IMG/VR virus record: IMGVR_UViG_3300027744_000848 | Span: 1-42,569 of that record | Source of the DNA: a virus | Taxonomy: Duplodnaviria > Caudoviricetes | Strand: one strand, 5' to 3' | Length of the DNA: 42,569 nucleotides | Shown here: in pieces, positions 11,191 to 42,568 of the stretch | Layout: each line of letters begins with the position of its first letter | Position numbering within the stretch: position 1 is the first letter of the stretch | Notes under the pieces: generated by a model | The model's input: the letters and a program-made list of their open reading frames with translations, nothing else | What the model was told of the DNA's origin: nothing | The model's database searches: none | Translations under genes and position numbers: made by a program

Positions 11191-12006
11191 TTAGATATTA
11201 AAGACCATAGAAAGCAAATAGGATCTGTTATTAATGACTCCTGTGCCATTTTCTAAATTTCTAATTTCTATTGAACTGTATTGAGGTGCCGCCTGAGACA
11301 AAGTCAGAGTCGTACTAGCTATTGTGTAGTCTATATTTGGAATCTGCACTAATCCATCCACTACGATAAGAACATTATTAGAATTGTTTATCGTTTGTAA
11401 TAATGTGTATGTGGTATTACTTCCATTGGATACGAAGTACTGAGAAGTTGCATTGGCTGTGGATGTATCACCTTTAGAACCAGTATAACCTAGTGATCCG
11501 GTGTAACCTAGTGATCCGGTGTAACCTAGTGATCCAATAGATCCTGTAAATCCAACTGAACCATTATAACCAATGACACCATCAGTACCTCTAGATCCTG
11601 TATAACCGAGATCTCCTTGAGATCCTGTATAACCTAATGATCCCGTATAACCTGTATCACCTTTAGATCCGGCATATCCAACTGAACCCGTAAATCCTGT
11701 GTTGCCAAAAGATCCTGTATACCCAGTCCCGCCGACTGAACCAGTGAATCCTACAGATCCTGTGTATCCCAGATCACCTTGAGATCCAGCATATCCGACT
11801 GAACCCGTGAATCCTACGCCTTGAGAACCAGTATAACCAACAGAACCATCGTAACCAATTGTGCCATCAGAACCTTTAGAACCCGTATACCCTGTAAGTC
11901 CAGATGTTGAGGCCCAGTACGTGATGATTCCATTAGACATCAAGACCTGGCCATTAGCAGATCCTTCTGTGCTGATATATCCTGGCCTGATTGTTTGGGC
12001 TACCAT
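11191..12006 (-). CDS. Collagen-like fibre stalk (271 aa)
   Basis: Continuous G-X-Y tract, C-terminal NGSNTTYT..DGLVQ.P..DYT..IEIRN domain, hydrophobic tail. Confidence 0.8.
   Translation of the reverse strand: MVAQTIRPGYISTEGSANGQVLMSNGIITYWASTSGLTGYTGSKGSDGTIGYDGSVGYTGSQGVGFTGSVGYAGSQGDLGYTGSVGFTGSVGGTGYTGSFGNTGFTGSVGYAGSKGDTGYTGSLGYTGSQGDLGYTGSRGTDGVIGYNGSVGFTGSIGSLGYTGSLGYTGSLGYTGSKGDTSTANATSQYFVSNGSNTTYTLLQTINNSNNVLIVVDGLVQIPNIDYTIASTTLTLSQAAPQYSSIEIRNLENGTGVINNRSYLLSMVFNI
11486..11535. repeat. Perfect 18-bp coding tandem repeat (~2.8 copies)
   Basis: taacctagtgatccggtg repeated; encodes GSLGYT. Confidence 0.85.
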
Positions 12007-13280: not shown

Positions 13281-14012
13281 TTAAAGACCAAATAAGAAAG
13301 CAGTGACAAACGTATCTGATAATACAGTCGTAGAAGTTCCGCCGCCACCTCCAGTACCATTCTCAAAATTGCGTGCTTCTACGGTGCTATTTGCAATTGG
13401 TATCGATGTGAACGAGAGCGTTGTTCCTGATATTGAATAATGTGTCGTAGGTACTTGTACAAGGCCATCGACCGAAACGACTAGATTATTTTGACTAGCA
13501 ACGGAAGATGCCAACGTGAATGTTAATTGAGAACCATTAGCCGTAAATGATTGAGAAGTTGCATTAGCTGTAGATGTATCACCTTTAGAACCGGTATAAC
13601 CAGCACCTACAGATCCCGTAAATCCTATTGAACCAAATGATCCGGTATATCCTAAGTCACCCTGGGAACCCGCATAACCAACAGATCCTGTAAATCCCGT
13701 GTTGCCAACAGATCCTGTGTATCCAACAGATCCTGTGTATCCAACAGATCCTGTGTATCCAACAGATCCTGTAAATCCAGTTGTTCCAAATGATCCTGTG
13801 AATCCAACAGACCCAAATGATCCTGTGTATCCCAAGTCACCTTGGGAACCCACATATCCAACAGAACCTGTAAATCCAGTAGAACCTGTGAATCCGAGAC
13901 CAGGAACCGCTACCCATGCTGTTGCAGCCGAGTTGAATCTATACGTATTTCCGCTAGTCGGATCTACATATAACTGAGTATCTGTAGGAGATCCTGGAAA
14001 ATTAATTGCCAT
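13281..14012 (-). CDS. Collagen-like fibre stalk (243 aa)
   Basis: MAINFPGSP N-terminus, G-X-Y tract, ANGS..DGLVQVP..YSISGTTL domain, FLFGL tail. Confidence 0.8.
   Translation of the reverse strand: MAINFPGSPTDTQLYVDPTSGNTYRFNSAATAWVAVPGLGFTGSTGFTGSVGYVGSQGDLGYTGSFGSVGFTGSFGTTGFTGSVGYTGSVGYTGSVGYTGSVGNTGFTGSVGYAGSQGDLGYTGSFGSIGFTGSVGAGYTGSKGDTSTANATSQSFTANGSQLTFTLASSVASQNNLVVSVDGLVQVPTTHYSISGTTLSFTSIPIANSTVEARNFENGTGGGGGTSTTVLSDTFVTAFLFGL
13705..13772. repeat. Perfect 18-bp coding tandem repeat (~3.8 copies)
   Basis: ccaacagatcctgtgtat x3 plus partial; encodes YTGSVG. Confidence 0.85.
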
Positions 14013-14042: not shown

Positions 14043-14046
14043 AGGT

Positions 14047-15326: not shown

Positions 15327-15327
15327 A

Positions 15328-15667: not shown

Positions 15668-17167
15668 TTACATTCCCGCTAATAAAAATTGATTGAATGG
15701 ATCCGCAGTAGGTGTGATCACACCCGCGCTAGGAGCAGCAGAAACCCATTGCGATGTATCACCATCATCGTAATATATGAATAAAGATCCGAGGTTTGTG
15801 TTCCACCAGACGTCACCGTTTGCAGGAGCAACCGGAGCAGTAGCAGATACATAGACTGATACACCTTGCGGTCCTGCTGATCCTGTATATCCGACTCCTT
15901 GCGATCCAACATACCCAGCTGATCCGGTATATCCCAAGTCACCTTTAGATCCCACATATCCAGTCGAACCCGTATATCCTGTATCACCAATATCACCCGT
16001 TCTTGCAAAGGTGATGATGATATCTAGATTGTTCGTAAAGTTGTTGGCAGATCCGTTTAGATAAGATGACGGGACAGCAAAGTAATTTGTGTAATGAGCA
16101 TGCGAACCTGTGATTGCATACAGCACGAAGTTAGCAGTATTTGCTTTTTCTGTGACAGTGAAATGTCCCTTGATAGCGGATGTAGAATCATCTATCGTCT
16201 GCAGAAATGTGTATATCGACTGAAAGTTGTCTGCATTTTCGCTGATATAAAGCGTATTTGCCAGAGTAAGATCTGTATTGCTTAATTTCAGATTGCCATT
16301 TGTCGGATCAGAATTGTTTGTGTTTGCATTGAAAGTGTAATCAAATGTAGCGCCGCCAAATGATCCTTGAGGTCCTTGCGAACCAACATATCCCAGGTCA
16401 CCTTTAGATCCCGTGTATCCAACAGATCCTGTAAATCCTACGCCTTGAGAACCAGTATAACCTAGATCACCTTGAGAACCCGCATATCCAACAGAACCTG
16501 CAAATCCGACACCCTGAGATCCTGTATATCCTAGATCACCTCGAGATCCTGTATATCCAACGGGCCCTATTTCACCAAGATCACCTTGTGAACCAGTATA
16601 GCCAGCATTTCCTTGTGATCCTACATACCCAACAGATCCATTATATCCGATGCTGCCATCAGAACCTGCAGATCCGGTATATCCCAAGTCACCTTTGGAT
16701 CCCGCATATCCGACAGAACCTGTAAATCCGACACCCTGAGATCCTGTATATCCTATGTCACCTCGAGATCCAACATATCCTACATCACCTTGAGATCCCA
16801 CATAACCAACAGATCCTGTGAAACCTGTTGTTCCGAAAGAACCAGTAAATCCCGTATCGCCTCTAGATCCTGTGTATCCTGCTGTACCAGGACCCCAGTA
16901 TACATCACTTCCGCTAGAATATAGGATCTGCCCAGAAGAACCGATAGAATTATTCGCGATGATAGCTTTTACTGCTAAGTTACCCGATATGTTTACGTTA
17001 GTATTATTAGCACCGATCTCAAACACGACTGATCCATTGCCGGAATACATGATTCCGTCAGTCATGTTTAATGCTAATTCGCCTGGATTTGGGAGGGTTG
17101 TGGTATTGGCCGCACGTCCTGATATGGAGGTACGTTTAATCTGAATTAAATTATTAGCCTGTGCCAT
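15668..17167 (-). CDS. Collagen-like fibre protein (499 aa)
   Basis: N-terminal IQIKRT..LPNPGELA domain, G-X-Y tracts, FGGATF..TFARTGD globular insert, AP..GDVWW..YYDDGDTSQWV knob, FLLAGM tail. Confidence 0.8.
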   Translation of the reverse strand: MAQANNLIQIKRTSISGRAANTTTLPNPGELALNMTDGIMYSGNGSVVFEIGANNTNVNISGNLAVKAIIANNSIGSSGQILYSSGSDVYWGPGTAGYTGSRGDTGFTGSFGTTGFTGSVGYVGSQGDVGYVGSRGDIGYTGSQGVGFTGSVGYAGSKGDLGYTGSAGSDGSIGYNGSVGYVGSQGNAGYTGSQGDLGEIGPVGYTGSRGDLGYTGSQGVGFAGSVGYAGSQGDLGYTGSQGVGFTGSVGYTGSKGDLGYVGSQGPQGSFGGATFDYTFNANTNNSDPTNGNLKLSNTDLTLANTLYISENADNFQSIYTFLQTIDDSTSAIKGHFTVTEKANTANFVLYAITGSHAHYTNYFAVPSSYLNGSANNFTNNLDIIITFARTGDIGDTGYTGSTGYVGSKGDLGYTGSAGYVGSQGVGYTGSAGPQGVSVYVSATAPVAPANGDVWWNTNLGSLFIYYDDGDTSQWVSAAPSAGVITPTADPFNQFLLAGM

Positions 17168-17180
17168 ATGGCCCTCTTAC

Positions 17181-17198: not shown

Positions 17199-17209
17199 AG
17201 TAATTATTA

Positions 17210-17428: not shown

Positions 17429-17458
17429 TATATATATATTCCTTTTCAAACGTTCATT

Positions 17459-17487
17459 ATTATAGCATAATATCTACATAGAATCAA
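17459..17487 (-). promoter_or_regulatory. Sigma70-type promoter
   Basis: TTGATT-N17-TATAAT with extended -10 TG (TGcTATAAT), intergenic. Confidence 0.65.
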
Positions 17488-17497
17488 CTATTATTTT

Positions 17498-19702: not shown

Positions 19703-22700
19703 TTAATATGACACCGATATCCATACAGTATTGCCATAATCACCCACATTAAGGCTCAATATTCCTGTGTCCGAATCTAACCAAAATGATCCGGAGTCAG
19801 AACTGGTCGGCACAACATTTCCGACATTGGCTTGTCCGGTTGCACCTTTCGATCCTGTGTATCCTATCGAACCCACATATCCGAGATCACCTTTTGATCC
19901 TGTGTAACCTAGATCGCCGATATCACCAGTCCTGGCAAATGTCACGACAACATTAGTGTTATTTGCAAATGCTGACGCTGATCCGCTGAGATAAGATATA
20001 GGAACATTAAAATATTGAGAATCTTGAACATGATTGCCGATGATAGCATACATCACATAGTTGTCATTATTTGCTATCTCAGTGATCGTAAAGTGACCTT
20101 TGATAGAAGATGTCGAGTCGTCGATGGTCTGCAAGAAAGGTTGTACATTAGCAGTCGCCTGATCTACATAGCTGATATACAATGTATTAGCATCGCTAAA
20201 TGTAGTATTGCTTAATCTTATCTCGCCATTAGCAGCTGCTGTAGGATCTGCTGTATTGCCATTGAAATAATATTCAAATGCAGCGCCGCCAAATGTTCCT
20301 GCAGGTCCTCGTGAACCTGTATATCCAAAAGATCCTGTATATCCTAAAGAACCTGTATAACCGATATCACCTTTAGACCCTACAAATCCAACAGAACCGT
20401 CATATCCAGCACCTGTTTCTCCAATATCACCCTTGGATCCTGTAAAACCGGATTCGCCAGATCCTCCAGAAGAACCAGTATATCCTACACCTCTAGATCC
20501 TGTGAATCCTATAGAGCCCCTTGATCCGTCAAATCCCACTGAACCTGTAAATCCTGCGCCAGTAGATCCTGTGAATCCCAACGATCCTATAGATCCTACA
20601 AAACCAGTATCACCCTGCGAACCTGCAAAACCTATTCCTATTGAACCGGTATAACCTAATTCACCCTGTGATCCTGTATAGCCAGCACCAGTAGATCCTG
20701 TATAACCAATATCTCCTAAAGAACCAGTGTATCCAGTATCACCCAATGATCCTGTATAGCCTATGCTACCTGTATAGCCTTCAGATCCGGTATAACCCAG
20801 ATCACCTTGAGATCCTACAAATCCGATATCACCTTTAGATCCTGTAAATCCTATAGATCCATCATATCCGCTACCAGTCGGACCCTGAGAACCTATAGAA
20901 CCTGCATACCCTGTATCTCCTTGATCACCGGCTCTTGCAAGAGTTAAAGCAGTAAGAGTATTATCACCGAGAACAGTATTAGCTCCAGCATCACCCGAAA
21001 GGAATGATATAGGAACAGTGGCATAAGATCCATTATCAGTTAACGAATCGATTATCATGAATGTGGCATAATTTAAATTATTGCCAGAAGCTGATATCTT
21101 AAAATGTCCTTTGATACCCGATGTGGAACTATCGATAATCAATAAAGAATTAAATACGAATTCAAATCGAAGATCACTTTTGTTGATGTACAAGAACGTA
21201 GAATTAGCAAGAGACGTATTGCTAAATCTTAAAGCACTTGTGCCAGGATCTGCATTCTGCGTGTTAGCACTATACAAATATAGAAAGGTTGTGCCTCCAA
21301 AAGCTCCTGGTTGTCCTTCATTGCCTTGAGATCCTGTGAATCCTACACCCTGAGATCCTGTATAACCGATAGAACCCGTATATCCCAGATCACCATAAGA
21401 TCCGGTATAACCCACAATACCCTGAGATCCTGTATAGCCAATAGAACCCGTATAACCAAGGTCTCCGTAAGATCCAGTATAGCCAATGGCACCTATCGAT
21501 CCAGTATAGCCTATCTCGCCTTGCGATCCGGAATATCCTATATCACCTAAAGATCCGGAGTAGCCAATCGGACCCTGTGATCCGGAAAATCCAAGATCAC
21601 CTCCAGATCCCACATAACCAGAATCACCAATAGATCCCGTAAATCCTAAATTACCTTGAGATCCTACAAAACCAGTATTGCCTTGTGATCCTGTATATCC
21701 GAGATCTCCTCTAGATCCTACAAATCCCAACGGTCCTATATTTCCCTGGATTCCTTGTTCACCTTGAGATCCAGTATATCCGATATCACCTTTAGATCCA
21801 GTATAACCTAACGATCCTGTGTAACCCAATGATCCAGCATATCCAGTATTGCCTAACGATCCTGTATATCCGATATCACCTTTAGATCCGGTATAACCTA
21901 ACGACCCCATGGATCCTGTATATCCAAGATCTCCTTGAGAGCCTACAAATCCCACAGAGCCCGTAAATCCTACAGAGCCTACAAATCCTACAGAACCAGT
22001 GAATCCAATAGATCCTGTGTATCCTATACTTCCTGTGAATCCTAACGAACCCGTATAACCAGTGTCGCCTCTAGAACCCACAAATCCCACAGACCCTGTA
22101 TATCCCGTATCACCCTTAGATCCAGTATATCCAAGATCGCCTCGAGATCCCACAAACCCAACAGAACCCGTGAATCCTATGCTTCCTGTAAATCCGATAT
22201 CACCTTTCGATCCTGTAAATCCTGTGTCACCTCGAGAACCCGTAAATCCCGTATCACCTTTTGATCCCGTAAATCCTACAGATCCGGTAAATCCTGTATC
22301 ACCCACGTCACCTGTTCTAGCAAATGTCAATATCACATTTGCATTATCGACAAAAGTTGTGGCTCCAGAAATGTATGCTATAGGAACATCAAAGAAGTTT
22401 GATGTGTAAGTATGAGATCCTATGATGCTAAATAATGTGAAACTGTCTGTATTGGCAGCACTCGTGATAGTGAACTGGCCTTTGATTGCTGAAGTAGAAT
22501 CATCAATCGTCTGCAAGAACGTAAAGGTTGATGTGAAGAATTTATCATTTTCATTGATGTACAGGTGTGTAGCAGATGCCAGCGATGTATTGCTAAATCT
22601 GACAAATCCATCACCAGGATTTGTATTTGCGGTAGAATCATCAAATCTATAGTCAAAAGCTGCACCACCAAATGCGCCGGTCGGACCGATAGACCCTACA

Positions 22701-23941
22701 AATCCCGTATCACCTTTGGATCCTGTAAATCCTAAAGATCCTGTATATCCCGTATCGCCTCTAGATCCGGTATAACCCACAGAGCCATCATAACCCGTTG
22801 CTCCACTCGATCCTCTAAAACCTTCAGATCCCCTATATCCAGTCTCACCTTGAGTTATACCGAAGTATCTAACTTCGATCTCAGAATTTAAGAATGGAAC
22901 ATAATTTAGTGTTAATGTCGTTCCAGAAACAGTATAATCTGTTTCTGGCGTCTCTATGATACCATTAACAAATACCATGATATGTGCGGCATTAGAAGTA
23001 GAATCTAATAATGTATACTGTGTATTGCTTCCGTTTCCTGTATATCTTGAAAACTTATATGGGCGACCTACTTCACCCGCCGATCCAGCAAAACCAGCAC
23101 CCTGCGAACCAGTATAACCCAATGAGCCGGTATAACCTGTAGCACCGCCAGGATCACCTTTTGATCCCTGGTATCCGACAGATCCCTGATATCCAACAGA
23201 TCCTAGATATCCAACGGACCCTACAGATCCTTGATATCCTACAGTTCCTAAGGATCCTTGATATCCAGGAGATCCTTGTATCGCATCAAAATATCTTACT
23301 TCTATGATTGAAGTGTTGACAGGGGCGGTAGAGAATGTTATAATAGTATTAGTTACTGTATAATCAGAATCAGGTGTTTCGACTAGACCATTGACAAACA
23401 CAAGGATATGGTTTGTATTTGCTACTGATTCTGCTAATGTAAATTGAGTATTGCTACCATTGGCAGTATATACAGATATCCTTGAAGGTTTACCTACACC
23501 ACCCAATGATCCTGAAAATCCAATGGAACCTGTATAGCCCAATGAACCGACAGAACCCGTATATCCTGTATCGCCGCCCGGCGTTCCAGCAGCACCTTGA
23601 GAACCTTGATATCCAGACGATCCAAAGAATCCCACTGAACCTAAGAAACCTGCAGAACCTTGAAATCCCGCAGATCCTGTAAACCCTGAAGAACCTGTAA
23701 AACCTACAGATCCATCGTATCCATCAGAAACGATATAACGAACTTCTATGTCAAAATTAGCTAATGGAGCAGAGGCAAAGATGATCTCAGTTCCACTAAT
23801 TGTATAATCAACACCAGGAACTTGCAGAAGTCCGTTAACAGAAACTAATATATTATTAGCTTGTGTTACTGTCTGTGTTAATGTATAATTAGTATTAGAA
23901 CCATTTCCGGTGTTCTTTTGACTATAGAAGATCAGAGCCAT
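19703..23941 (-). CDS. Large collagen-like fibre protein (1412 aa)
   Basis: Long G-X-Y tracts dominated by GYT/GFT/GFV-GSx, three NGSNT beta domains, three FGG..ARxGD globular inserts, C-terminal Trp-containing knob. Confidence 0.85.
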   Translation of the reverse strand: MALIFYSQKNTGNGSNTNYTLTQTVTQANNILVSVNGLLQVPGVDYTISGTEIIFASAPLANFDIEVRYIVSDGYDGSVGFTGSSGFTGSAGFQGSAGFLGSVGFFGSSGYQGSQGAAGTPGGDTGYTGSVGSLGYTGSIGFSGSLGGVGKPSRISVYTANGSNTQFTLAESVANTNHILVFVNGLVETPDSDYTVTNTIITFSTAPVNTSIIEVRYFDAIQGSPGYQGSLGTVGYQGSVGSVGYLGSVGYQGSVGYQGSKGDPGGATGYTGSLGYTGSQGAGFAGSAGEVGRPYKFSRYTGNGSNTQYTLLDSTSNAAHIMVFVNGIIETPETDYTVSGTTLTLNYVPFLNSEIEVRYFGITQGETGYRGSEGFRGSSGATGYDGSVGYTGSRGDTGYTGSLGFTGSKGDTGFVGSIGPTGAFGGAAFDYRFDDSTANTNPGDGFVRFSNTSLASATHLYINENDKFFTSTFTFLQTIDDSTSAIKGQFTITSAANTDSFTLFSIIGSHTYTSNFFDVPIAYISGATTFVDNANVILTFARTGDVGDTGFTGSVGFTGSKGDTGFTGSRGDTGFTGSKGDIGFTGSIGFTGSVGFVGSRGDLGYTGSKGDTGYTGSVGFVGSRGDTGYTGSLGFTGSIGYTGSIGFTGSVGFVGSVGFTGSVGFVGSQGDLGYTGSMGSLGYTGSKGDIGYTGSLGNTGYAGSLGYTGSLGYTGSKGDIGYTGSQGEQGIQGNIGPLGFVGSRGDLGYTGSQGNTGFVGSQGNLGFTGSIGDSGYVGSGGDLGFSGSQGPIGYSGSLGDIGYSGSQGEIGYTGSIGAIGYTGSYGDLGYTGSIGYTGSQGIVGYTGSYGDLGYTGSIGYTGSQGVGFTGSQGNEGQPGAFGGTTFLYLYSANTQNADPGTSALRFSNTSLANSTFLYINKSDLRFEFVFNSLLIIDSSTSGIKGHFKISASGNNLNYATFMIIDSLTDNGSYATVPISFLSGDAGANTVLGDNTLTALTLARAGDQGDTGYAGSIGSQGPTGSGYDGSIGFTGSKGDIGFVGSQGDLGYTGSEGYTGSIGYTGSLGDTGYTGSLGDIGYTGSTGAGYTGSQGELGYTGSIGIGFAGSQGDTGFVGSIGSLGFTGSTGAGFTGSVGFDGSRGSIGFTGSRGVGYTGSSGGSGESGFTGSKGDIGETGAGYDGSVGFVGSKGDIGYTGSLGYTGSFGYTGSRGPAGTFGGAAFEYYFNGNTADPTAAANGEIRLSNTTFSDANTLYISYVDQATANVQPFLQTIDDSTSSIKGHFTITEIANNDNYVMYAIIGNHVQDSQYFNVPISYLSGSASAFANNTNVVVTFARTGDIGDLGYTGSKGDLGYVGSIGYTGSKGATGQANVGNVVPTSSDSGSFWLDSDTGILSLNVGDYGNTVWISVSY

Positions 23942-23951
23942 TTAATGCCTA

Positions 23952-23959
23952 TATAAATA
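23952..23959 (+). promoter_or_regulatory. T4-type late promoter TATAAATA for the glycosyltransferase
   Basis: Exact consensus 40 nt upstream of ATG at 24000; GAGGT RBS in between. Confidence 0.7.
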
Positions 23960-23974
23960 ATATTAATTCCTACA

Positions 23975-23982
23975 TATTTATG
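23975..23982 (-). promoter_or_regulatory. Near-consensus late promoter CATAAATA for the large collagen gene
   Basis: 7/8 match upstream of ATG at 23941. Confidence 0.5.
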
Positions 23983-23999
23983 TTTTACGTGAGGTTGTT

Positions 24000-26756
24000 A
24001 TGAAATACCCATCTATTGCTATTTTAGATCTGATTGGGCTTGTATATGATGGCGATACGCTATCAAAACGAGGTTTGGGTGGATCCGAATCTGCTGTTAT
24101 TCTCATCTCTAAAGAGCTGGCCAAATTAGGATTTCCTATAACTGTTTTCAATGCTTGTCAAGATGATGATAGTCGTCCAGGTATTTATGATGGTGTAACT
24201 TACAGACCAGTCGGTAGCATTACTAATAATGATGTATTTGACATTGTTATTTCATCCAGAACTGTAGTTCCTTTTGTCCCAAATCATTATTATGAAGCAT
24301 TCAATAGAGCGACTGCATATCCTTGTGCTATATTTCAGAACATGCGTAACAAGGCAAAGCATAAAGTTCTCTGGATGCACGATACTTTCTGTAATGGAGA
24401 TATCAATCTAGAAGATCTCGCTGTCAGTGGACATATCGATAAGATTTTTACGCTATCAGATTTTCATACCTCCTATGTCTCGACATGTGATCACGGCAAG
24501 AGGCGCAACTTTGAAGTATTGAAGAACAAGATATTTCAGACGAGGAATGGGATCGTCAATTATTTTGATGAAGTAGATATATCAAAGAAAGATCGCAACC
24601 TATTCGTATATAATGCTTCTGTGACAAAGGGAATGCTACCTCTCATCGACAGGGTATGGCCTAGGATCAAAAGGCATATACCAGAAGCACGATTGAAAGT
24701 GATTGGCGGGTATTATAGGTTTCGTTCTGACGGACCTCTGGATGCTCAAGGTGAGACACATCAGAAGCTAATCCAAGATCAGAAATATAAAGTTCTCGGA
24801 ATCGAGTTTACAGGCATTATATCTCAGAAAGAGATTGCCGAGATATTGTCTGAAGCATCTATGTTCCTTTATCCGGGAGCATTCCCAGAAACGTTTGGCA
24901 TCTCTACATTAGAATCGCTCGCATATAATACACCTCTAGTGGCCACTAGATTTGGTGCATTGGAAGAGACTGCTATAGGCAATGCGTCTTATTTTATCGA
25001 CTATGCTATCGAACCAAATAGTCTATTCAGAGATATCAATATAGAAACTCAGTGTGAGCGTTTTGCCGGATTAGTTCTTACTGCGTATAATAATCCTTAT
25101 CTGCATCAGCAGAAACAATATTATTGCAACATAGTCAAGGATATCTCTACCTGGGATACGGTTGCTCTGCAATGGAAGCAACATTTCTTTAAAGAATTAA
25201 ATCATTACCTTCCTGCGGATGAATATCGTAAAGTGTCTTATATCAATGATCGAATCCATAAAGTATTCGGTCGTAGGTTCAGCAACAATGAAGAATGGAA
25301 CACGTTTACACAGAATAAAGAACAGCATATTGTTGTGATCACGCCTTTCTTTAATGCAGAGCAATATATCCTCAGGTGCATCGATTCTGTTGCTACACAG
25401 AACTACAACAACTGGACGATGTATCTGATCAATGATGCTAGCACTGACGGTGCCAAGTTTGCGATCAACCATAAGCTAAAGACATTGCCAGAAGATATCA
25501 GATCAAAGATCACCGTCATTACTAATAATGAGAATAAAGGTGCTGTGTATAATCAGATAAACACGATTAAAAATGTATTCGGTCTGGACACTATCGTGAT
25601 GCTCCTCGATGGTGATGACGCATTAATTAACGATAACAACATATTTAATTTCTACAATAATCTCTACGCTGATGGTAAGACGGATTACTCATATGGAAGC
25701 TGTTGGTCAGAAGCGGATAACATTCCGCTGATCGCTCAACCGTATCCAAAGGCGATCAGAGACACTAAGAGCTATCGAGAATATAAGTTCAATTGGGGAA
25801 TGCCGTATCCTCATCTCAGGACATTCCGTAGAGAGTTGTTGAACTTTATTGATGATTCTGTATTTAAAGATGAGAACGGAGAATGGTTCAAAGCAGGCGG
25901 CGACAATGCCACATTCTATAATATAATAGAAAGAGCTAATCCTGATAAGATCAAAGTCGTGCAGGATATCGTCATGCTCTATAATGACAAGAACCCATTG
26001 AACGATTATAAAGTCAATGGTGAACTTCAAAACAAAAATGCTAGTAAAATTGCTAACGATGCAAAGATCCAAATAAACAAAGTAGAAGTAAATTCTACAC
26101 CACGTCCTATGAATGTAGAAATGGTTCAAACAAAAGAAATGGTTGTAAAGAACGTCATGAAAAAAAAGATATTAATCGCGATTCCTACAGCAAAGAACAT
26201 CGAACCCAACACCTTTAAATCGATATATGATCTGAGAGTACCTGAAGGATATGAGACAACATATCAGCATTTTTACGGGTATAATGTAGATCAGGTACGC
26301 AACCTGATCGCTGATTGGGTCGTCAAAGGATTCGATTATCTGTTTGCAGTCGACTATGACGTATCATTTGCATCAGATACGTTAGAGAAGTTATTGTCAC
26401 ACGACAAGGATGTAGTGTCTGGTATCTATAGGCAGCGTAATCCTGATAGACAGACTCTAGAGATATTCGAAGAGAATGATAGGGATGGATATTCACATGT
26501 CGAATGGGAAAAGATCCGAGGACAAGGATTAGTTCGTATCGGAGCTTGTGGATTCGGCTGTGTTCTTGTCAAGAGACAAGTGATGGCAGATATCGGATAT
26601 CCGCAGTTCGTCTATAAGTCAGCGATAGATCACAACAACACATTCTCTGAAGATCTATATTTTGCCAAGAAGGCAAAGGAAAAAGGATTCGAGATATACG
26701 CAGATACGACGATACTGTGCGACCATACAGGATCTTATACGTTCCGAGTTCAGTAG
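24000..26756 (+). CDS. Three-domain glycosyltransferase (GT-B/GT4-like + GT2 + second GT-A domain)
   Basis: GGSE and ETFGISTLESLA (GT4 E-x7-E) motifs; VVITPFFNAEQYI..NDASTD..LDGDD (GT2); KILIAIPT..VDYD..GFGCVLVKR..SEDLYF..CDH (GT-A). Confidence 0.9.
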   Translation: MKYPSIAILDLIGLVYDGDTLSKRGLGGSESAVILISKELAKLGFPITVFNACQDDDSRPGIYDGVTYRPVGSITNNDVFDIVISSRTVVPFVPNHYYEAFNRATAYPCAIFQNMRNKAKHKVLWMHDTFCNGDINLEDLAVSGHIDKIFTLSDFHTSYVSTCDHGKRRNFEVLKNKIFQTRNGIVNYFDEVDISKKDRNLFVYNASVTKGMLPLIDRVWPRIKRHIPEARLKVIGGYYRFRSDGPLDAQGETHQKLIQDQKYKVLGIEFTGIISQKEIAEILSEASMFLYPGAFPETFGISTLESLAYNTPLVATRFGALEETAIGNASYFIDYAIEPNSLFRDINIETQCERFAGLVLTAYNNPYLHQQKQYYCNIVKDISTWDTVALQWKQHFFKELNHYLPADEYRKVSYINDRIHKVFGRRFSNNEEWNTFTQNKEQHIVVITPFFNAEQYILRCIDSVATQNYNNWTMYLINDASTDGAKFAINHKLKTLPEDIRSKITVITNNENKGAVYNQINTIKNVFGLDTIVMLLDGDDALINDNNIFNFYNNLYADGKTDYSYGSCWSEADNIPLIAQPYPKAIRDTKSYREYKFNWGMPYPHLRTFRRELLNFIDDSVFKDENGEWFKAGGDNATFYNIIERANPDKIKVVQDIVMLYNDKNPLNDYKVNGELQNKNASKIANDAKIQINKVEVNSTPRPMNVEMVQTKEMVVKNVMKKKILIAIPTAKNIEPNTFKSIYDLRVPEGYETTYQHFYGYNVDQVRNLIADWVVKGFDYLFAVDYDVSFASDTLEKLLSHDKDVVSGIYRQRNPDRQTLEIFEENDRDGYSHVEWEKIRGQGLVRIGACGFGCVLVKRQVMADIGYPQFVYKSAIDHNNTFSEDLYFAKKAKEKGFEIYADTTILCDHTGSYTFRVQ

Positions 26757-26953
26757 ACAGGGACTATCGGCGCATCTCTAGGAACAGCAGGAAGCGTGCC
26801 TAACATATCAGTCGCTTCCTGCTTTAGGACTGATATGGGTTCTATAGTCTGATTGATCAATTTAACGATGATTGTCGTCTGTAGCGGCGCATACCTAGCA
26901 GTCGTCACCAATATGTTATTGAACTTCGATACAGTTATCTTAGAGTCACGCAT
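26750..26953 (-). CDS. Hypothetical protein (67 aa)
   Basis: TGATG-coupled to upstream gene; fills gap to the convergent glycosyltransferase. Confidence 0.55.
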   Translation of the reverse strand: MRDSKITVSKFNNILVTTARYAPLQTTIIVKLINQTIEPISVLKQEATDMLGTLPAVPRDAPIVPVY

Positions 26954-29598: not shown

Positions 29599-29601
29599 CT
29601 G

Positions 29602-31296
29602 TTATATCTGTAATGCAATTGCTCTGACATCCTTCATTGTAGGATACTTGACCATATCATCTGACAGTAACAATATCTTGATAGAAAACGTATCAAATCC
29701 TCTGATTATAGTTCCTACCTCATCATAATAAGTCAGCGTACCCGGAGGAACATCTAGTGCAATGTTACCTACTGAATCTGCATATGCTGATAGAGTGGTA
29801 TTTCCAGAAGGTTGTGATGCGCTGACAGGAACACCATAAACATATTCTTTATAATCTTCTAGATTTTTAGGTGATCCAAACAACAAACCTGTATCATTCT
29901 TAGGTGATAGTTCTGTCCATACTTTTGTATCAAATGATCCTGGATCAGCAACAGAATTTAAAAATTTACCGTATACTTTGATATTTGTTCCCACAGGCCT
30001 ATATCCTGTAACATAAACAAGCAGATCTTCTGATATAGCATCAAGCAAAACAGTCTTGGAGATATATTTGCTTCTGCCATTACCATATCTGGTCCATTCA
30101 TTGGTCTCATCATTATTGATTATGTTCTGCGTATAATTGATGTTTTTAGTTTGCAGATCAACAACAGGTGAAAGATACGGTGTGAATGAATTTAACTCAA
30201 GTTCAAAAGTTGCTGTGCCTTTTGTTCCGTAAGTACCATTCTTAACTTCATTAGAATAACTTCTGACAACTCTTTCAAAGTCTCTAAATTCGTAAAGTGA
30301 TTCGTTTTTAGGGGCTACCTTTGTTGTGTCTTTGGCATTTGATAATGTGCTATTGCTTGTTCCATAATATCCGGAAGAAATATAAGTTCCTGAAGGCTCA
30401 GACATTGTAAATTTAGGAATCAGCCCATGATATATCAGATCATCTATCGTTGATATTGTGGCATTAGCAACTCTGTATGTTTCTGTGATATATGATGTAT
30501 TTGCTGGATCAGGAGTTCTATAAATTCTGATATTGCTATAATCTGGCGCTGTTACACTAAACAGACCATTCGTATTTTCTAAAAATAATATTCCACGAAT
30601 CTCATCCACTGATTTGACAGTTGCCTTGGGATATAATGTATTATCAGATGTCAATATGGATGATAAACTTGTAGCATTAGCAGCATATACAACATCACCT
30701 GTCTGTATCTGACCTCCGGTTGCTTTCTTAATTATACCAGCTGTCAGATTTAAACTAAGATATTCTTCTTTTGCGTTTCTAAATACAGCCGTGCCTGTAG
30801 TATGGGCAAAATTAGCTCTATAAAGATTAAACTTGATATCCTGTGTCTGTACAGGAGTCCATGTATTACCATTAGAAGATATGAACATAACTCCAGGATA
30901 CGGCTGTTGCGTGATAGCTCGTCCAGTGATCTTATCTACACCACCTATCTCAGAAACCCATATATTATAATCAGGGCTATTGGATTCAGGATATACATAA
31001 AATGCATAAGTTTGACCTGATGCAGCCATAATGGGTGTGTTGAATGTAAATATAGTTTCAGAAGAAGAATCTTCGCTTACGGTAACGCTACTAGCCGTTT
31101 TATACGAAACTCCCATTATTTTTGCAGGGTTAGGAATCCCATTAATAGTTTCACAAACTACACAAGACACACCGGCCGTAGCACTTTTATTTTTAAAAAA
31201 AACTCCTATTTGAGTTAAGAAAATGCCCGGCAATGCAATTGAAGCAGTTCCTTCAATCGTAAATGTTTGAGCTAATGGATTTCCGTTTAATAACAT
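29602..31296 (-). CDS. DUF4815/VrlC-like structural protein, C-terminal part
   Basis: PLAQTF start, G..F.SSN..TW...Q.DIKF.LYRA.F, SPVVD, F.IKI...P...D.RAIAL end; AAGGT RBS. Confidence 0.75.
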   Translation of the reverse strand: MLLNGNPLAQTFTIEGTASIALPGIFLTQIGVFFKNKSATAGVSCVVCETINGIPNPAKIMGVSYKTASSVTVSEDSSSETIFTFNTPIMAASGQTYAFYVYPESNSPDYNIWVSEIGGVDKITGRAITQQPYPGVMFISSNGNTWTPVQTQDIKFNLYRANFAHTTGTAVFRNAKEEYLSLNLTAGIIKKATGGQIQTGDVVYAANATSLSSILTSDNTLYPKATVKSVDEIRGILFLENTNGLFSVTAPDYSNIRIYRTPDPANTSYITETYRVANATISTIDDLIYHGLIPKFTMSEPSGTYISSGYYGTSNSTLSNAKDTTKVAPKNESLYEFRDFERVVRSYSNEVKNGTYGTKGTATFELELNSFTPYLSPVVDLQTKNINYTQNIINNDETNEWTRYGNGRSKYISKTVLLDAISEDLLVYVTGYRPVGTNIKVYGKFLNSVADPGSFDTKVWTELSPKNDTGLLFGSPKNLEDYKEYVYGVPVSASQPSGNTTLSAYADSVGNIALDVPPGTLTYYDEVGTIIRGFDTFSIKILLLSDDMVKYPTMKDVRAIALQI

Positions 31297-31313
31297 TTTG
31301 TATTTTTACCTTT

Positions 31314-33191
31314 TTAAAAATAACAGCTAGTACCAGTTTGACCAGTATATCCCTGTCCGTTACCATCCCAGCTTGTTCCAGGCCCCATCTCGGCATTATT
31401 ATAACTAGTACTATTATCGCCGGCTTTATTATGCACAACATAACCTTCGACATTATACATATGATCGCCATCCAACAACAGATTGTAAATTACGTAATCT
31501 TCTGGCATGATTTTGTGATCGATATATTCTACTGTCTCATATGTTCCATCTGATTTAAGAATCTTAGATCCGATAACAATCTTGACTAATCTACCAATAA
31601 ACTCTTCTTCAACAGCCCAGCTGTCAGGATCAAACGCTCCCCAACCTTCTGAAGTCATGATAGGATGTTCTTCTGAAACGAACGCCCAGTTACCATTGAA
31701 AGAATACATCAATCTGTTTCCAAGAACAGGAGCTTCGATTCCTATGACTGTATTGATTCCGTCAGTTCCATCAGCAACAAGATCACCGATCTCAATCTCA
31801 CAGATCTTCTTAAAACTACCATCTGCCATTGTAACTAGAGCATCTGGATCAAAACAACAACCGCCTCCATTATTATTATTACCACCATTATTATTATTAA
31901 TATTAGTTATGTTCTTAATATTATTAGTTATATAATTATTAATATCAGGAAGTTGATCTTCTGTGGTCCATGCCAATGGTGCTAGTTCATTAGAAACAGT
32001 GCTTGGTGTAAATGTTGGTTGTATGATTGAAAATCCTACTTGTTGAGTAGTCACAGAAAGTGCAGATGATTTATATACTCCTTCTGCACTACTAGTAATT
32101 GCAGAAGCAGCAGTAGCATCATCAGTATCATTAATAATAAATGTTCTTTCGCCTGCTCTAAATGTATTTGCAGGAAGGAAGAAAAGAACATACACTTCTC
32201 CTAGACTATTTGTCGTTAATTGCGATCCAAGAGCTCCAGTCTGATTTAATATTATAGCAGGATTGGGCAACGTATTAATAGAAGCTAATGTTGCAGGATT
32301 TAGGCTTCCATTAGATAGAGCATATGCGCTTGCTGGTGTTGCAGGAGCACAATAAGAAGAAACCGTCTTGGAATCAAAATAAGCATACACCTTTGTGTTG
32401 GGTCTCAGGCCTTTTCCTATGATAGCTATAGTTTTTGTTGACATATATTCTAGTTGAGACACGTTGGTGACATATTGACCTACATCTTGTGTTATCGTCT
32501 GTGTCTGAACAGCAATATCACTGATTGTCTGTGTTACTGTAGAATTCCAATAGTTAGTTAATCCAACTTCTTTTACTATTGCAGGAGACCCTTGCAGTGT
32601 ATCTATATCTTGAAATGAACCCGCAGATGCTGCAGCAATAAACCCGCCAGCCACATCCACAGAAATAGTCTGCGGGGCTGCATTAATACCCACATTAGTC
32701 CCATCATAGCTAGGAAATAAAGCTAAAGAACCTCTGAAACTATAAAATGTCTCTGCTGAATTTCTGTATATAGAAGCATAAGGATTTCCGCCAATATTCA
32801 CGTTGGTATAGCTGATTGTTAATACCTTGCCTGAAGATTGTACGTTGCTGCTAGAATCTGTGTCCAAAGCAAATCCTGGAAAAACTTGATTGACATTGGG
32901 TCTGGCAATAGATTTGCTAGAACTGACTGCCATATTAAATTCAGCATCTTCTACTCTAGATATAGAGCTATCGTTAAAAGGATCAGCAAATATTCCGTTC
33001 TTAAATCTCTCTAATTGTGTTCCAGTATTGATCACAGAAGTCGTCTGAGTATCAAGCGCCAAGGCATTAAGAACAGTATAATATTCTATGTTTTTAATAC
33101 GTGCTTCCAATGCACTAATCTCTTTCATAGTATACCCTTTGGCTTTTTGAATGCCAACTTGTACTGCTAAATCTTTTCTACCGTATGTCAT
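31314..33191 (-). CDS. DUF4815/VrlC-like structural protein, middle part, with C-terminal Hint domain
   Basis: YTMKEI..LE.RI.NIEYY, RFKNGIFADPF, GLRPNT.VY.YFD, FRAGER.F motifs, followed by Hint domain. Confidence 0.8.
   Translation of the reverse strand: MTYGRKDLAVQVGIQKAKGYTMKEISALEARIKNIEYYTVLNALALDTQTTSVINTGTQLERFKNGIFADPFNDSSISRVEDAEFNMAVSSSKSIARPNVNQVFPGFALDTDSSSNVQSSGKVLTISYTNVNIGGNPYASIYRNSAETFYSFRGSLALFPSYDGTNVGINAAPQTISVDVAGGFIAAASAGSFQDIDTLQGSPAIVKEVGLTNYWNSTVTQTISDIAVQTQTITQDVGQYVTNVSQLEYMSTKTIAIIGKGLRPNTKVYAYFDSKTVSSYCAPATPASAYALSNGSLNPATLASINTLPNPAIILNQTGALGSQLTTNSLGEVYVLFFLPANTFRAGERTFIINDTDDATAASAITSSAEGVYKSSALSVTTQQVGFSIIQPTFTPSTVSNELAPLAWTTEDQLPDINNYITNNIKNITNINNNNGGNNNNGGGCCFDPDALVTMADGSFKKICEIEIGDLVADGTDGINTVIGIEAPVLGNRLMYSFNGNWAFVSEEHPIMTSEGWGAFDPDSWAVEEEFIGRLVKIVIGSKILKSDGTYETVEYIDHKIMPEDYVIYNLLLDGDHMYNVEGYVVHNKAGDNSTSYNNAEMGPGTSWDGNGQGYTGQTGTSCYF
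31428..31856 (-). other. Hint (intein-like) domain, 143 aa, no homing endonuclease
   Basis: Block A CFDPDALVTMADG..K.I.EI..GD.V; block B SEEHP; blocks F/G IYNLLLDGDHMYNVEGYVVHN; +1 residue is Lys. Confidence 0.85.
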
Positions 33192-33192
33192 A

Positions 33193-36100
33193 TTACTCTG
33201 CTTCTTGGAATGTTAGAGATGGATAAGGAGGAACATATATATCAGCAATTTTCATTCCTGAGTTATTTAACGTAGGAGGTCTAGGATTGAACGCAGCTGC
33301 ACCTGTTTTTACTATTAAGGCCCCTTCTTTATTTATCATTAGCGCATCCATCCTAGGAAGGTAGTACTGTGCGTTAAAAGAGAAATTAGAATCGGGTTCG
33401 ATAGCAAGTTTAGCACCCACAGTGGAATAATATACCGATTGGTTATTGGCAGGATTAATAGTAAGTCCCGGTATAGCACTTGATGTGAATACGTTTGCTG
33501 TATTAGCAAGAACAGGTCTGAGATCGATATAATTCCTCAGATCGTATATATCACCAGTGACAGATGTGTATAACGGAATTTCTGCGGTTGCGATTGCTTG
33601 AGTATTTGCTGTGTTAGCATCATCTATAGGATATGAATCCACAGAAAAGAATGTTGCCTGAGAAGATGTTATATTGGGTGTCAGATGATTCAGTGTTACT
33701 AACAATCTGCTAGTAGAAGATATCAGTGTCTTGTATGTAGGTTTTAATTTAAGCTGAGCAATTCCATAAAAGTTATCTTGTTGACCGTTATCCAATTCAA
33801 ACCAATCAACTCTATTTGGGTTTGTGTTAGCAAAGCTAGTTCCTACATATACTGCTGTGATCTTTAACGCATCAGGCAGTCCCAATGACCACGGACCGAC
33901 TGTATTGGCATAATGAGAAGCACAATTGATGCCGATGTGTGTATTTTTATTTACAACTTTTAATATCGGTACAGCATTGTTTCTAGCAGAAGGTATCTGT
34001 GCATATACGTTATAATTCGTGCTTGACTCAGGAAACAAATTCATTGCCATGTTTGCGGTCAATGTTCTCACGGGAGTTCCGCTAAAATTTAAAGTATTTG
34101 ATGAGCCGGTAAAGTTTGCATACGAACCGGCTTTATGATACTTGTATATTGCTGCAGTGGCCGCGCTCACAGGAGCGATTGGAGTAACAAACATCACATT
34201 AGCAGCTGTTACAGAAACAACGCTATGATATGTTGTGCCGCCGCCAGATGCTATGATCTGAATTGTTTCTCCTGCTTTGGGATTCTGGTCATTAGTAACA
34301 CCAAAATTTGTTATCCAGGGTGCTGCAGTTCCGATACCAATTGCGGTTGCTACTCTGGATACACCGCCAGCATAGACAACAGAATTGAAAGTGCCAGTTG
34401 CGGCTACTTCTGTTGTTATTGTGGGTCTTGTTAATGTTGCTGTTGCATACAGATTAGAAAATGTATCCTGTGCAAACATCACATGGATATCTTCATCAAT
34501 GGTATCACCCACAGTTCCGACACCATAATTATATTGATCTGAAGCCAATGTTATTGTTGCAGAAGCAACAGAACTGCTTGCTCTTGATAATGCTGTTAAT
34601 GCAGACGTTGATCTGTATATGTAAGAAGTATCATTATTAGCAATATTGCTTGTATTGCTAGTAAGAGTCTTTAATCCTTTAAATCCAGTATCCAATAAAA
34701 GCAATTTACTTGCAGACTCATATACAACGGATTTGTTATTTGCTTGGTATATATCAGCCCAAATCTTACCAAAAGTTCCATTCACATAAAAACTTTTAGC
34801 GCTAGTTGCAAACGAATATCCTGCTCTCATTCTGATATTGCTCAGATAAAGCAGATATTCAGCAGTTCCTGTACCTTTTGTTCCAGTATTAAATGTGACT
34901 GCTTTGACATTTGCATTGCCTACTAGCGTACCCAACGGAGCTGTTGTGCTAGGATTCTGTGAGATCGCAAACTGATTGGCGCTATAGATTCCTATATCTT
35001 GATTGCCGCCGATATCAAATGTTCCCACAACATCTCTGATCTTAACATAATTTCCAAAATTAGCAGTTGCTCTTAAATTTTTAAGAGACTCAGAATATAT
35101 TGCTCTATTTACTTCTATTCTTTTTGTAGACAGATACTCTACTCTATATCCATCGATATAAGCGATACCAGGAGATGTAGTATAATAGAATGTCTGAGAA
35201 TTGGCAGATGCTTCAACGTTGACCTGAAAAGGTTTTACAATATAATCACCAGATTCTTCTTTTGTTCTTGTGGCAATCAGATCTCCAAGACGATTGAGTT
35301 CTAAGTTAGATTTAACAACCACAGGACGACCATCTGCACTATCATAATCTATAATAGGAAGAAAATCTTTTGGTATAGTTATAGTAGGATCAAGAGAATC
35401 ATATGCTATAGGAGAAGGTACTAATTTTAATCTGTATGCACCCGGAGCGTTCTGATTGGAGCTTCCGATTGAATTGTCGTATAGAGTATTATCTTCTGCG
35501 GGCTTTACAATATATTCTGCTGTATTAAATCCCACCTTCATACCGATAGTATTGGAGCTATGTTCTCGCACCATAAAATTATCAGCAAGTGTCTTTAGAA
35601 AGAATCCTTTTTGGTATATTATTCCCTGGCCCACATGGATACCATATCCCACACCCAAAGCGTTTACTGTGCTATTAGAAGAGAGCGTATAAATCACTCC
35701 AGATTTGTTAGAAGCAACTAACGGACCTTGTTTATCTTGAAATGGTGTATATACATCGATCTGTTCTTGTGTAGTATTAAATGTTTTTACTTCTTGTCCA
35801 GAATTATTTCCAGAATTTAGATATAATACATAAGCTCTATTTGTGTCTGAAGATCCCTGATTGACAACAGATTCTGCTCCTACAAATGCTTGAAAAACAG
35901 CTGCTCTCAAACCAGTTGTATTGGAAACAAGGAGATAAGAATTGGTCAGATGCGATTGTGAGTTTGCTACATCAGTAGCAGTTTTTACAATTAAAGTAAA
36001 ATCGATAGTAGACGTATTGCCATCAGTAAATTTAGTCTGAGGCAGATCTGGATATTCAGTAAAGTTACAACCTTCGATGATACTGCCATCTTTATAGATG

Positions 36101-36270
36101 CTGTCTCCAAATCGTGAGACTTGTTTCTGCATCATTGTCTGTAGCTGAGTTAGCTCCCTTGCTTGCACAGCAGTTGCTGGACGAAACAGCATCCTATAAT
36201 ACTGTTTATCCTCGTCATAATCATCATAAAAAGGAGCGACATTAAAATTAGTTTGTAACTCAGCCATCAT
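33193..36270 (-). CDS. DUF4815/VrlC-like structural protein, N-terminal part
   Basis: N.APFYDDY....YYR.LFRP..AVQARELTQLQ, APGA.RLK, RT.EESGDY.V.PF, DLRNYIDLRP, YYLPR.D. Confidence 0.8.
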   Translation of the reverse strand: MMAELQTNFNVAPFYDDYDEDKQYYRMLFRPATAVQARELTQLQTMMQKQVSRFGDSIYKDGSIIEGCNFTEYPDLPQTKFTDGNTSTIDFTLIVKTATDVANSQSHLTNSYLLVSNTTGLRAAVFQAFVGAESVVNQGSSDTNRAYVLYLNSGNNSGQEVKTFNTTQEQIDVYTPFQDKQGPLVASNKSGVIYTLSSNSTVNALGVGYGIHVGQGIIYQKGFFLKTLADNFMVREHSSNTIGMKVGFNTAEYIVKPAEDNTLYDNSIGSSNQNAPGAYRLKLVPSPIAYDSLDPTITIPKDFLPIIDYDSADGRPVVVKSNLELNRLGDLIATRTKEESGDYIVKPFQVNVEASANSQTFYYTTSPGIAYIDGYRVEYLSTKRIEVNRAIYSESLKNLRATANFGNYVKIRDVVGTFDIGGNQDIGIYSANQFAISQNPSTTAPLGTLVGNANVKAVTFNTGTKGTGTAEYLLYLSNIRMRAGYSFATSAKSFYVNGTFGKIWADIYQANNKSVVYESASKLLLLDTGFKGLKTLTSNTSNIANNDTSYIYRSTSALTALSRASSSVASATITLASDQYNYGVGTVGDTIDEDIHVMFAQDTFSNLYATATLTRPTITTEVAATGTFNSVVYAGGVSRVATAIGIGTAAPWITNFGVTNDQNPKAGETIQIIASGGGTTYHSVVSVTAANVMFVTPIAPVSAATAAIYKYHKAGSYANFTGSSNTLNFSGTPVRTLTANMAMNLFPESSTNYNVYAQIPSARNNAVPILKVVNKNTHIGINCASHYANTVGPWSLGLPDALKITAVYVGTSFANTNPNRVDWFELDNGQQDNFYGIAQLKLKPTYKTLISSTSRLLVTLNHLTPNITSSQATFFSVDSYPIDDANTANTQAIATAEIPLYTSVTGDIYDLRNYIDLRPVLANTANVFTSSAIPGLTINPANNQSVYYSTVGAKLAIEPDSNFSFNAQYYLPRMDALMINKEGALIVKTGAAAFNPRPPTLNNSGMKIADIYVPPYPSLTFQEAE

Positions 36271-36276
36271 ACTTCC

Positions 36277-38316: not shown

Positions 38317-38320
38317 GGTA

Positions 38321-42084: not shown

Positions 42085-42474
42085 TTATCTTACTCTTCTT
42101 AAGACGAAATCTAATGTTATTGGTGATATATTATTTACTAGCGAAAATACGATAGTTACTTCATAAGCATTATTATCAGGAAAACCTTTTGCTGTGATGC
42201 TTATAAGTCGAGCTCTGGGTTCATAATTGTTTATAGTGTCTGCAATCTTCTCTTTTAAGACGTATTCGGTATCTTGACTTATATTCTCAAACAGTGTCTG
42301 GCGTATGCCCGAACCCAATCCCGGATTAAAGAACCTCTCGTAAGGATCTGTCAATAGTAAGTTACGAATAGATCTTTTTACCGCAACCTCATTGGTTATC
42401 AATACCAGATCCTCTTTGACAGGATGGATATCAAAATTAGTAGGTATATCTGAATAAAATACGGTGCTTGCCAT
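42085..42474 (-). CDS. gp25: Baseplate wedge subunit gp25 (start reassigned to MASTVF)
   Basis: YSD....F..HP...DL....NE.AVKRSIRNL.LT...ER.F.P..GS....LFE, YEPR. Confidence 0.92.
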   Translation of the reverse strand: MASTVFYSDIPTNFDIHPVKEDLVLITNEVAVKRSIRNLLLTDPYERFFNPGLGSGIRQTLFENISQDTEYVLKEKIADTINNYEPRARLISITAKGFPDNNAYEVTIVFSLVNNISPITLDFVLRRVR

Positions 42475-42478
42475 CGTA

Positions 42479-42486
42479 TATTTATA
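42479..42486 (-). promoter_or_regulatory. T4-type late promoter TATAAATA
   Basis: Exact consensus 4 nt upstream of the gp25 ATG. Confidence 0.7.
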
Positions 42487-42568
42487 ATGATGTCCGACAA
42501 GCATTTAGATACTGCGGATTGTATTTTTGAATGTCATTGGCAGTAGAAGATGCTAGTGCCCATCCCTG
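42482..42568 (-). CDS. 3' end of an upstream gene, truncated by window edge
   Basis: Open frame ...QGWALASSTANDIQKYNPQYLNACRTSL* with stop overlapping the late promoter. Confidence 0.45.
   Translation of the reverse strand, partial: QGWALASSTANDIQKYNPQYLNACRTSL

Follow-up and report, generated by a model that had tools for sequence, protein, structure and literature searches.

What does a glycosyltransferase (GT) modify when its gene lies back to back with a collagen-like fibre gene of a phage? The 42.6-kb stretch of DNA that raises this question (the window, 42,569 nt) is an entire viral contig with an estimated completeness of 26%, and it carries the module for baseplate and fibres of a T4-like myovirus. 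A reading made from the sequence alone (the sequence-only reading) had proposed that the GT glycosylates Thr/Ser of the neighbouring fibre, with an emphasis on Thr in the Y position of the collagen triplets. The parts of the literature cited here generally interpret GTs that aquatic T4-like phages carry in their fibre islands as modifiers of the host surface or of DNA (PMC7029224, PMC12619734, PMC12801897).

The glycosyltransferase and its setting

The minus strand of the window encodes gp25, gp6, wedge and DUF4815 proteins, an S74-chaperone fibre, lectin-domain proteins and five collagen-like proteins (Table 1), and the nearest cultured gp6 proteins are those of Stenotrophomonas phage DLP6 (39% identity) and Caulobacter phage Cr30 (36%). 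The GT gene is indeed the sole long gene on the plus strand, being the only plus-strand ORF longer than 139 aa among 59 ORFs of at least 80 aa; a hairpin downstream of its stop codon scored no better than shuffled sequences (z 0.32). Two large concanavalin A/laminin G lectin-domain proteins (223-3024 and 4761-7031) at the end of the fibre cluster are likely receptor-binding proteins, which could possibly bind the phage's own glycans in addition. A unit consisting of a ~110-aa gene and then a ~300-aa glycine-rich PF21722 gene occurs three times at 9853-15657 with small collagens between the copies, and these units probably form branched fibre tips. The 625-aa DUF4815 protein (31314-33191) has a weak match, under the cut-off, to Hint (intein-like) domains at residues 444-473, and a VrlC-like gene that is fused in relatives lies in three pieces in the window. 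Short minus-strand ORFs of <80 aa are apparent in the inter-ORF gaps 26757-26952, 17168-17497 and 29369-29601, one of them convergent with the GT stop codon.

Table 1. Positions of the main features in the window
Feature	Position	Strand	Basis or remarks
929-aa collagen-like protein	7031..9820	-	30 motifs
271-aa collagen-like protein	11191..12006	-	18 motifs
243-aa collagen-like protein	13281..14012	-	single 33-triplet run, 14 motifs
499-aa collagen-like protein	15668..17167	-	25 motifs, one globular-domain copy
1412-aa collagen-like fibre	19703..23941	-	259 triplets, 92 motifs, three globular domains
~120-aa globular domain	19922-20290, 20924-21298, 22307-22669, within 15668-17167	-	conserved 'IDDSTS' core
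T4 late-promoter consensus TATAAATA	23952..23959	+	consensus match; starts 48 nt before GT start codon
Late-promoter-like CATAAATA	23975..23982	-	34 nt before collagen start
918-aa three-domain glycosyltransferase	24000..26756	+	Pfam, phrog_1574, AlphaFold model, conserved motifs
T4-like baseplate module (gp25, gp6, gp7/gp8-like wedges, DUF4815 proteins)	29602..42504	-	profile matches, gp6 comparison

The proposed fusion of GT4, GT2 and GT-A domains is borne out by matches to PF00534 (residues 199-329, 43.5 bits, cut-off 26.4), PF00535 (residues 446-614, 67.7 bits, cut-off 23.3) and phrog_1574 (residues 717-915), together with a second GT-A fold in the C-terminal part of the structural model. 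This AlphaFold model was built on an alignment of 137 sequences (mean pLDDT 91.3) and was used instead of a single-sequence model with a pLDDT of 35. It divides the protein into a GT-B/GT4 domain (residues 1-402), a GT-A/GT2 domain (443-686), a linker that is flexible or disordered in the model (688-718) and an A197-like GT-A domain (720-918), and the motifs G27-G-S-E30, K210, E297..E305, D537-G-D-D540, D785-x-D787, S883-E-D885 and H909 are 99-100% conserved in the 137 sequences. Retaining GT4 enzymes of the GT-B fold are marked by an N-terminal Gly-Gly loop and an E-x7-E motif; domain 1 has both (G27-G28-S29-E30, and E297 with E305) as well as the two Rossmann domains of this fold, and its structural matches include MshA, HepE and PimA-type enzymes (Z 29-30, rmsd ~2.9 over 320-340 residues). 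Domain 2 combines the PF00535 match with an invariant DxD (D537-G-D539-D540) and a Z of 19.9 to TarS, and domain 3 has a minimal GT-A fold with DxD (D785, D787), S883-E-D885 and the late His H909, all invariant, along with, among the structure matches listed, a Z of 21.2 to STIV A197 (2C0N; rmsd 2.0, 166 aligned residues), the matches of both domains coming from the full-length model. In sequence, the resemblance of domain 3 to A197 is a weak profile match (E 5e-5). No transmembrane segment was found in the GT (maximum Kyte-Doolittle 19-mer 1.46), and it is predicted to be a soluble three-domain enzyme.

The known peptide O-transferases GtfA (Z 21.8) and SdgB (Z 20.3) rank under the small-molecule GT4s, and, judging from the model, no domain of the GT appears to resemble such enzymes specifically. 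Foldseek matches to the collagen glycosyltransferases mimivirus R699 and human LH3 were rejected as generic tandem GT-A matches (TM-scores 0.15-0.17, rmsd ~22), as was a match to GalT1 (5HEA) that spans the generic GT2 N-terminus only.

Phage DNA glycosyltransferases include both GT-B and GT-A folds, which would suit a role of the GT in hypermodifying phage DNA, as the T4 glucosyltransferases do, and so would the structural matches to T4 alpha-glucosyltransferase (Z 21.7) and a phage HY126 GT (Z 23.4) and the position of one ortholog near replication genes. However, these Z values fall under those of the generic GT4s, the GT gene of the window sits in a fibre module, and a DNA target would leave the co-variation of the enzyme with a protein motif, described below, unexplained, and we consider this role very improbable. 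A search for TET/JBP (PF12851), one mark of the hydroxymethyl-base pathway to which DNA-hypermodifying glycosyltransferases are linked, gave no match in five complete genomes, where the search control was silent too.

Scoring of 7,998 candidates places at least 1,906 sequence clusters in the GT family. An FkbM methyltransferase is fused to 46 of the top 120 homologs and a second GT4 domain is present in 97 of them, which fits the expectation for oligosaccharide assembly lines. A search of 50,697 phage records gave no ortholog, the best match covering 40% of the protein at 26% identity. Among 30 matches in 185,579 prokaryotic genomes, three are strong, all on phage-like contigs in metagenome-assembled genomes (MAGs), and motif collagens adjoin the GT in two of the three; the remaining 27 matches involve the GT2 domain only, at 23-33% identity, and no full-length cellular ortholog was found in these genomes. 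The closest cellular relatives of the GT2 domain (L565-L591) come mostly from Chlamydiia and Dependentiae MAGs, often as tandem copies, and viral clusters make up 85-100% of the atlas neighbours of domains 2 and 3. In one 16.5-kb record (L054, 2901-13086), the ortholog lies outside a fibre module beside helicase, ThyX-like (thymidylate synthase-like) and methyltransferase genes; several genes resembling those of methyltransferases and glycosyltransferases come after it. Neither this GT family nor the collagen motif treated below was found described in the literature searched, a body with few subscription journals and no supplements.

Promoters and timing of expression

The GT and the 1412-aa collagen are encoded head-to-head across an intergenic region that does span 58 nt (23942-23999), and the exact TATAAATA reported in it is present. 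In fact, two late-type motifs face in opposite directions within the spacer, TATAAATA before the GT and CATAAATA before the collagen, the second of which the sequence-only reading had missed. The raw count of TATAAATA is at chance level (8 in the window vs 5.6 +/- 2.5 expected). NATAAATA has 17 copies on the minus strand, which is the coding one, and two on the plus strand, and nine of the 17 minus-strand copies lie at most 120 nt upstream of a long ORF, in a zone that makes up 7.5% of the window. The GT gene has the arrangement expected of a T4 late promoter, with TATAAATA shortly before the gene and no -35 box, and no sigma70 site was found before it in the window genome.

The 45 dereplicated orthologs are more diverse, a sigma70-type promoter preceding 25 of them (2.5 expected) and a plus-strand late motif 12 (2.6 expected from shuffles), with both types in two and neither in ten; ATAAATA on the minus strand occurs in 25 of the 45 ortholog clusters (3.3 expected). 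The earlier description of the enzyme as late-expressed therefore fits the promoter motif of the window genome but not the family as a whole, and late expression is a fair prediction for this genome, no family trait. Capsid glycosyltransferases of PBCV-1 are early genes, according to the part of PMC9614988 drawn on here, so earlier expression of the GT would be compatible with a role in virion glycosylation. A near-perfect sigma70 promoter ends ~8 nt before the GT start codon in a group of jumbo phages (L046, L048, L379, L381-L390), which suggests that their GT message is leaderless. In four freshwater metatranscriptome runs, contigs 90-99% alike overlap parts of the GT and the collagen; these contigs give no strand or level and may derive from DNA.

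The sigma70-type promoters in 25 of the 45 orthologs, possibly early ones, would also suit an enzyme that modifies the host surface (LPS O-chain or capsule) and so blocks superinfection. This is the reading given to glycosyltransferases of the host-recognition cluster of pelagimyophages in the passages cited from PMC7029224, and the weak NCBIfam matches of the GT, all far under their cut-offs, are to cell-envelope enzymes. Nevertheless, we hold a host-surface target to be improbable, for it leaves unexplained why the GT tracks one collagen motif, and it sits poorly with the lack of a full-length cellular ortholog in the prokaryotic genomes searched and the phage-like origin of the three strong matches mentioned above.

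The collagen repeat and its association with the enzyme

The 1412-aa fibre, the N-terminus of which has T7-tail-like repeats, would measure ~225 nm if its triplets (counted in runs of at least four, the longest of 108) were wholly helical at 0.29 nm per residue. The low Pro content ascribed to it holds, with Pro in 10 of the 259 triplets, and charged residues occupy 15% of its X positions and 11% of its Y positions. The description of its triplets as mostly GYT or GFT alternating with G-S-x was overstated, since GYT and GFT together account for only 52 of 259 (20%), while G-S-x accounts for 99 (38%). The more regular pattern is that all 84 G-[YF]-x triplets (32%) are followed by Gly-Ser, and the same is true of every such triplet in the five collagens of the window (161/161), where Ser follows a non-aromatic triplet in 14 of 296 cases. 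These five collagens hold 179 copies of the resulting motif G-[YF]-x-G-S, against two copies among the 22 remaining minus-strand proteins. At 35 related loci, the aromatic triplet has Ser after it in 3,237 cases (95.8%), encoded by TCN in 2,325 and by AGY in 912; as a switch between the two codon families takes two base changes, we infer that the hydroxyl residue itself is kept, and this Ser is not replaced by Ala.

These counts do not favour the Riftia-type Thr in the Y position, since the residue x of the 161 aromatic triplets is Thr in 107 (Val 22, Ala 8, Gln 6, others 18), whereas the X position of the triplet that comes after is always Ser. The emphasis on Thr is also countered by Thr-rich collagens without the Ser motif, which have no GT ortholog, and by aromatic-Thr collagens without the following Ser (G014, 2/35; G017, 4/78; G021, 2/304), in which the ortholog is likewise absent. 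The loci of the latter three (L095, L106 and L122, respectively) are giant-virus-like and have long Gly-Tyr-Thr, Gly-Phe-Thr, Gly-Trp-Thr and Gly-Pro-Thr runs without serine, from which it follows that an aromatic triplet alone needs no following Ser; G017 has two GT2 genes.

The collagen of the 1412-aa fibre is interrupted by a ~120-aa globular domain at residues 425-545, 882-1006 and 1218-1340, for which no Pfam match was found. The domain recurs in fibres from many phages, which together show at least eight different collagen dialects, among them a 1740-aa fibre (G090; L510, 2803-8025) with a Lys-rich GTK/GAK collagen (77% Lys/Arg at Y) that looks like a charge-based dialect; no GT ortholog was found with this homologous fibre.

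The sequence-only reading had called for a check of co-occurrence between the enzyme and the repeat, and its expectation was upheld. We scanned 11 of 64 parts of a viral collection with a DNA pattern for GYTGSxGYTGS and obtained 51 records of at least 41 kb, 48 of which were searched for the GT. An ortholog (E<1e-128) is present in 36 of the 48, including all five phage records that are at least 90% complete; four others have weak matches only and eight have none. Because the pattern coded Ser as WSN, which covers codons of Thr, Cys, Trp and Arg too, it picked up G-x-T collagens (G008, G014, G017, G021 and G041) that were recognised afterwards by translation. Among the 12 misses are five giant-virus-like or marginal matches, with collagens mostly without Ser, and their removal after inspection gives 36 of 43. 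The other seven are true motif carriers, six of them 12-20% complete and one (G018) 64% complete; this last record, from which the gp6 region is missing, has one motif collagen and no GT ortholog and is the best counter-example to the pairing.

The controls include many fragments or near-copies of one another, and in them the ortholog is found in one of the 32 Gly-Pro-Gln collagen records searched (of 35 given), the lone positive having 170 G-[YF]-x-G-S matches itself, and in none of 36 records with fibres that share the globular domain but have other repeats (GTK/GAK, GAQ, GTQ, GPT, GAT/GPQ, GST). The latter 36 were taken from 47 loci as records of at least 20 kb, and include three near-complete genomes and many Thr-rich collagens. 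Starting from the enzyme instead, at least three motifs are found in 46 of 64 loci, and 12 of the other 18 have <350 nt upstream; two exceptions with full flanks have motif matches in other parts of the contig (113 in L048, 24 in L049), and two short records (L054 and L060) have none. Motif matches number 0-1 in each of eight cultured T4-like genomes and 69-234 in five near-complete genomes with the GT. Among cultured phages, the best collagen match is Actinomycetia phage DSL-LC01, which has a GPT/GAT collagen and lacks the GT ortholog.

The head-to-head arrangement of GT and collagen is found in 22 of 41 ortholog clusters with at least 1 kb upstream, and in G081 and G082 the GT and the repeats are ~15 kb apart, so adjacency is not needed for the pairing; hitch-hiking would explain part of the association but not such distant cases. 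In a quick tree of gp6 with 34 rows, several negatives of which are fragments, enzyme and motif are present or absent together in all rows and were therefore coded as one label, which changes three times, in three separate T4-like clades. These provide three phylogenetically independent contrasts, which are not significant by a sign test (p 0.25). Loci found by gp6 first are mostly short fragments, and this tree, the second one built on gp6, omits G091 (a fragment with a gp6 identical to that of a positive), three other short records and one duplicate. A fourth group, jumbo phages of ~350 kb with a different baseplate (wedge proteins of 1,141-1,460 aa), has both enzyme and motif. In a record from the sister clade of the window's group (G086), homologs of the 699-aa and 581-aa flanking genes adjoin with neither GT nor collagen between them, and in G087 neither GT nor collagen was found from gp6 to the neck genes.

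Because the enzyme accompanies the repeat in several phage lineages, it likely glycosylates the fibres that carry this repeat. The same linkage could arise if the repeat were a purely structural collagen dialect and the GT acted on another virion protein (capsid, sheath or lectin-like fibre tips), with repeat and GT both inherited in one fibre module. The head-to-head layout in about half of the clusters and the small number of independent contrasts would agree with this, as would the likeness of domain 3 to STIV A197, a proposed glycosylator of capsid protein in the passages seen of PMC10551542, and the glycans of mycobacteriophages, which lie on capsid and tail tube (cited in PMC12619734). 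Yet the pairing holds at a distance of ~15 kb and across unrelated head and baseplate lineages, the enzyme is missing from all 36 records compared that have homologous fibres with other repeats, and the Ser is kept through both codon families without being swapped for Ala; we therefore regard another virion target as unlikely, if less so than the host surface or DNA.

Proposed function and comparison with known systems

We consider it probable that the GT O-glycosylates the Gly-[YF]-x-Gly-Ser motif on nascent collagen fibres and extends a short glycan there. The earlier proposal of fibre glycosylation thus gains from the co-occurrence, but with the emphasis on the invariant Ser instead of Thr: if the motif is glycosylated, Ser would be the likelier primary site, with Thr as a possible second one. 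In the cytoplasm of the infected cell, one GT domain would place the first sugar on the Ser of unfolded chains, the remaining two would extend it to a short oligosaccharide, and in many relatives the fused FkbM methyltransferase would cap it. The Tyr or Phe three residues upstream would serve as a recognition mark and may stack on the sugar, as side chains at i and i+3 lie on one side of a polyproline II strand. Aromatic residues and Ser are poor collagen-helix formers in host-guest peptide work; the sugar would aid the folding of a triple helix that has almost no proline and little charge, besides coating the fibre.

A more far-reaching version can be put forward only tentatively, and we think it rather doubtful as a whole: the motif would be a dedicated viral O-glycosylation signal and a new means of stabilising collagen, at which phage-only enzymes (at least 1,906 clusters) add a short, sometimes methyl-capped glycan to the X-position Ser; the sugar would clamp the upstream aromatic residue, so that a proline-free helix of up to ~0.2 micrometre folds only when glycosylated; and enzyme and motif would have moved together between T4-like and jumbo phages.

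If the GT does modify the fibre, a large unstudied enzyme family gains a substrate, virion glycosylation reaches beyond mycobacteriophages to abundant uncultured myoviruses, and there is a serine/aromatic path to collagen stability free of proline. A motif-specific soluble O-glycosyltransferase would also serve recombinant collagen work.

The comparison with known systems draws on parts of the papers cited, among them PMC8968730, PMC10202952 and PMC9599227. A close parallel is SgtA of C. difficile, which attaches O-GlcNAc to Thr and Ser of peptides from the exosporium collagen BclA3 (PMC7157674). Enzymes of the SgtA type transfer the sugar as beta-O-GlcNAc from UDP-GlcNAc. As here, the GT gene adjoins a collagen-like gene, and a GT-A domain is involved, SgtA O-glycosylating hydroxyls of Gly-X-Y (Thr; Ser in vitro). 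However, SgtA is a 358-aa protein of GT-A plus TPR, while the phage enzyme is a 918-aa fusion of GT-B, GT-A and GT-A in which the Pfam scan found no TPR and the model shows three alpha/beta domains but nothing like a helical repeat. The substrate of SgtA is Gly-Pro-Thr, in contrast to the Pro-poor phage repeat, and GPT collagens in the records compared are without a GT ortholog. By analogy, the GT would work as SgtA does on BclA3 without belonging to the SgtA family.

The PBCV-1 enzymes A064R and A111/114R are likewise soluble, viral and three-domain and build a virion glycan stepwise, as proposed for the GT, and one has a methyltransferase cap like the FkbM-fused relatives; they differ in coming from a eukaryotic virus, in making an N-glycan on the major capsid protein and in domain families and order (PMC9614988). 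Mycobacteriophages (Freeman et al. 2023, cited in PMC12619734 and PMC12582341) also encode GTs that modify virion proteins, but these are siphophages and the targets are the C-termini of capsid and tail-tube proteins. STIV A197 (PDB 2C0N) has the fold of domain 3 and is essential and a proposed virion glycosylator, but is a single-domain protein of an archaeal virus (PMC10551542). In the cuticle collagen of Riftia pachyptila, sugar on a hydroxyl stabilises a hydroxyproline-poor collagen, as proposed for the phage, although it sits on Y-position Thr, whereas the invariant hydroxyl of the phage repeat belongs to X-position Ser (cited in PMC10141479). Finally, the phage collagen EPclA is stable without sugar, but it is rich in Pro and charge and free of aromatics; the E. 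coli prophage collagens are similarly unglycosylated, have no aromatics and depend on Pro and charge (PMC3368898).
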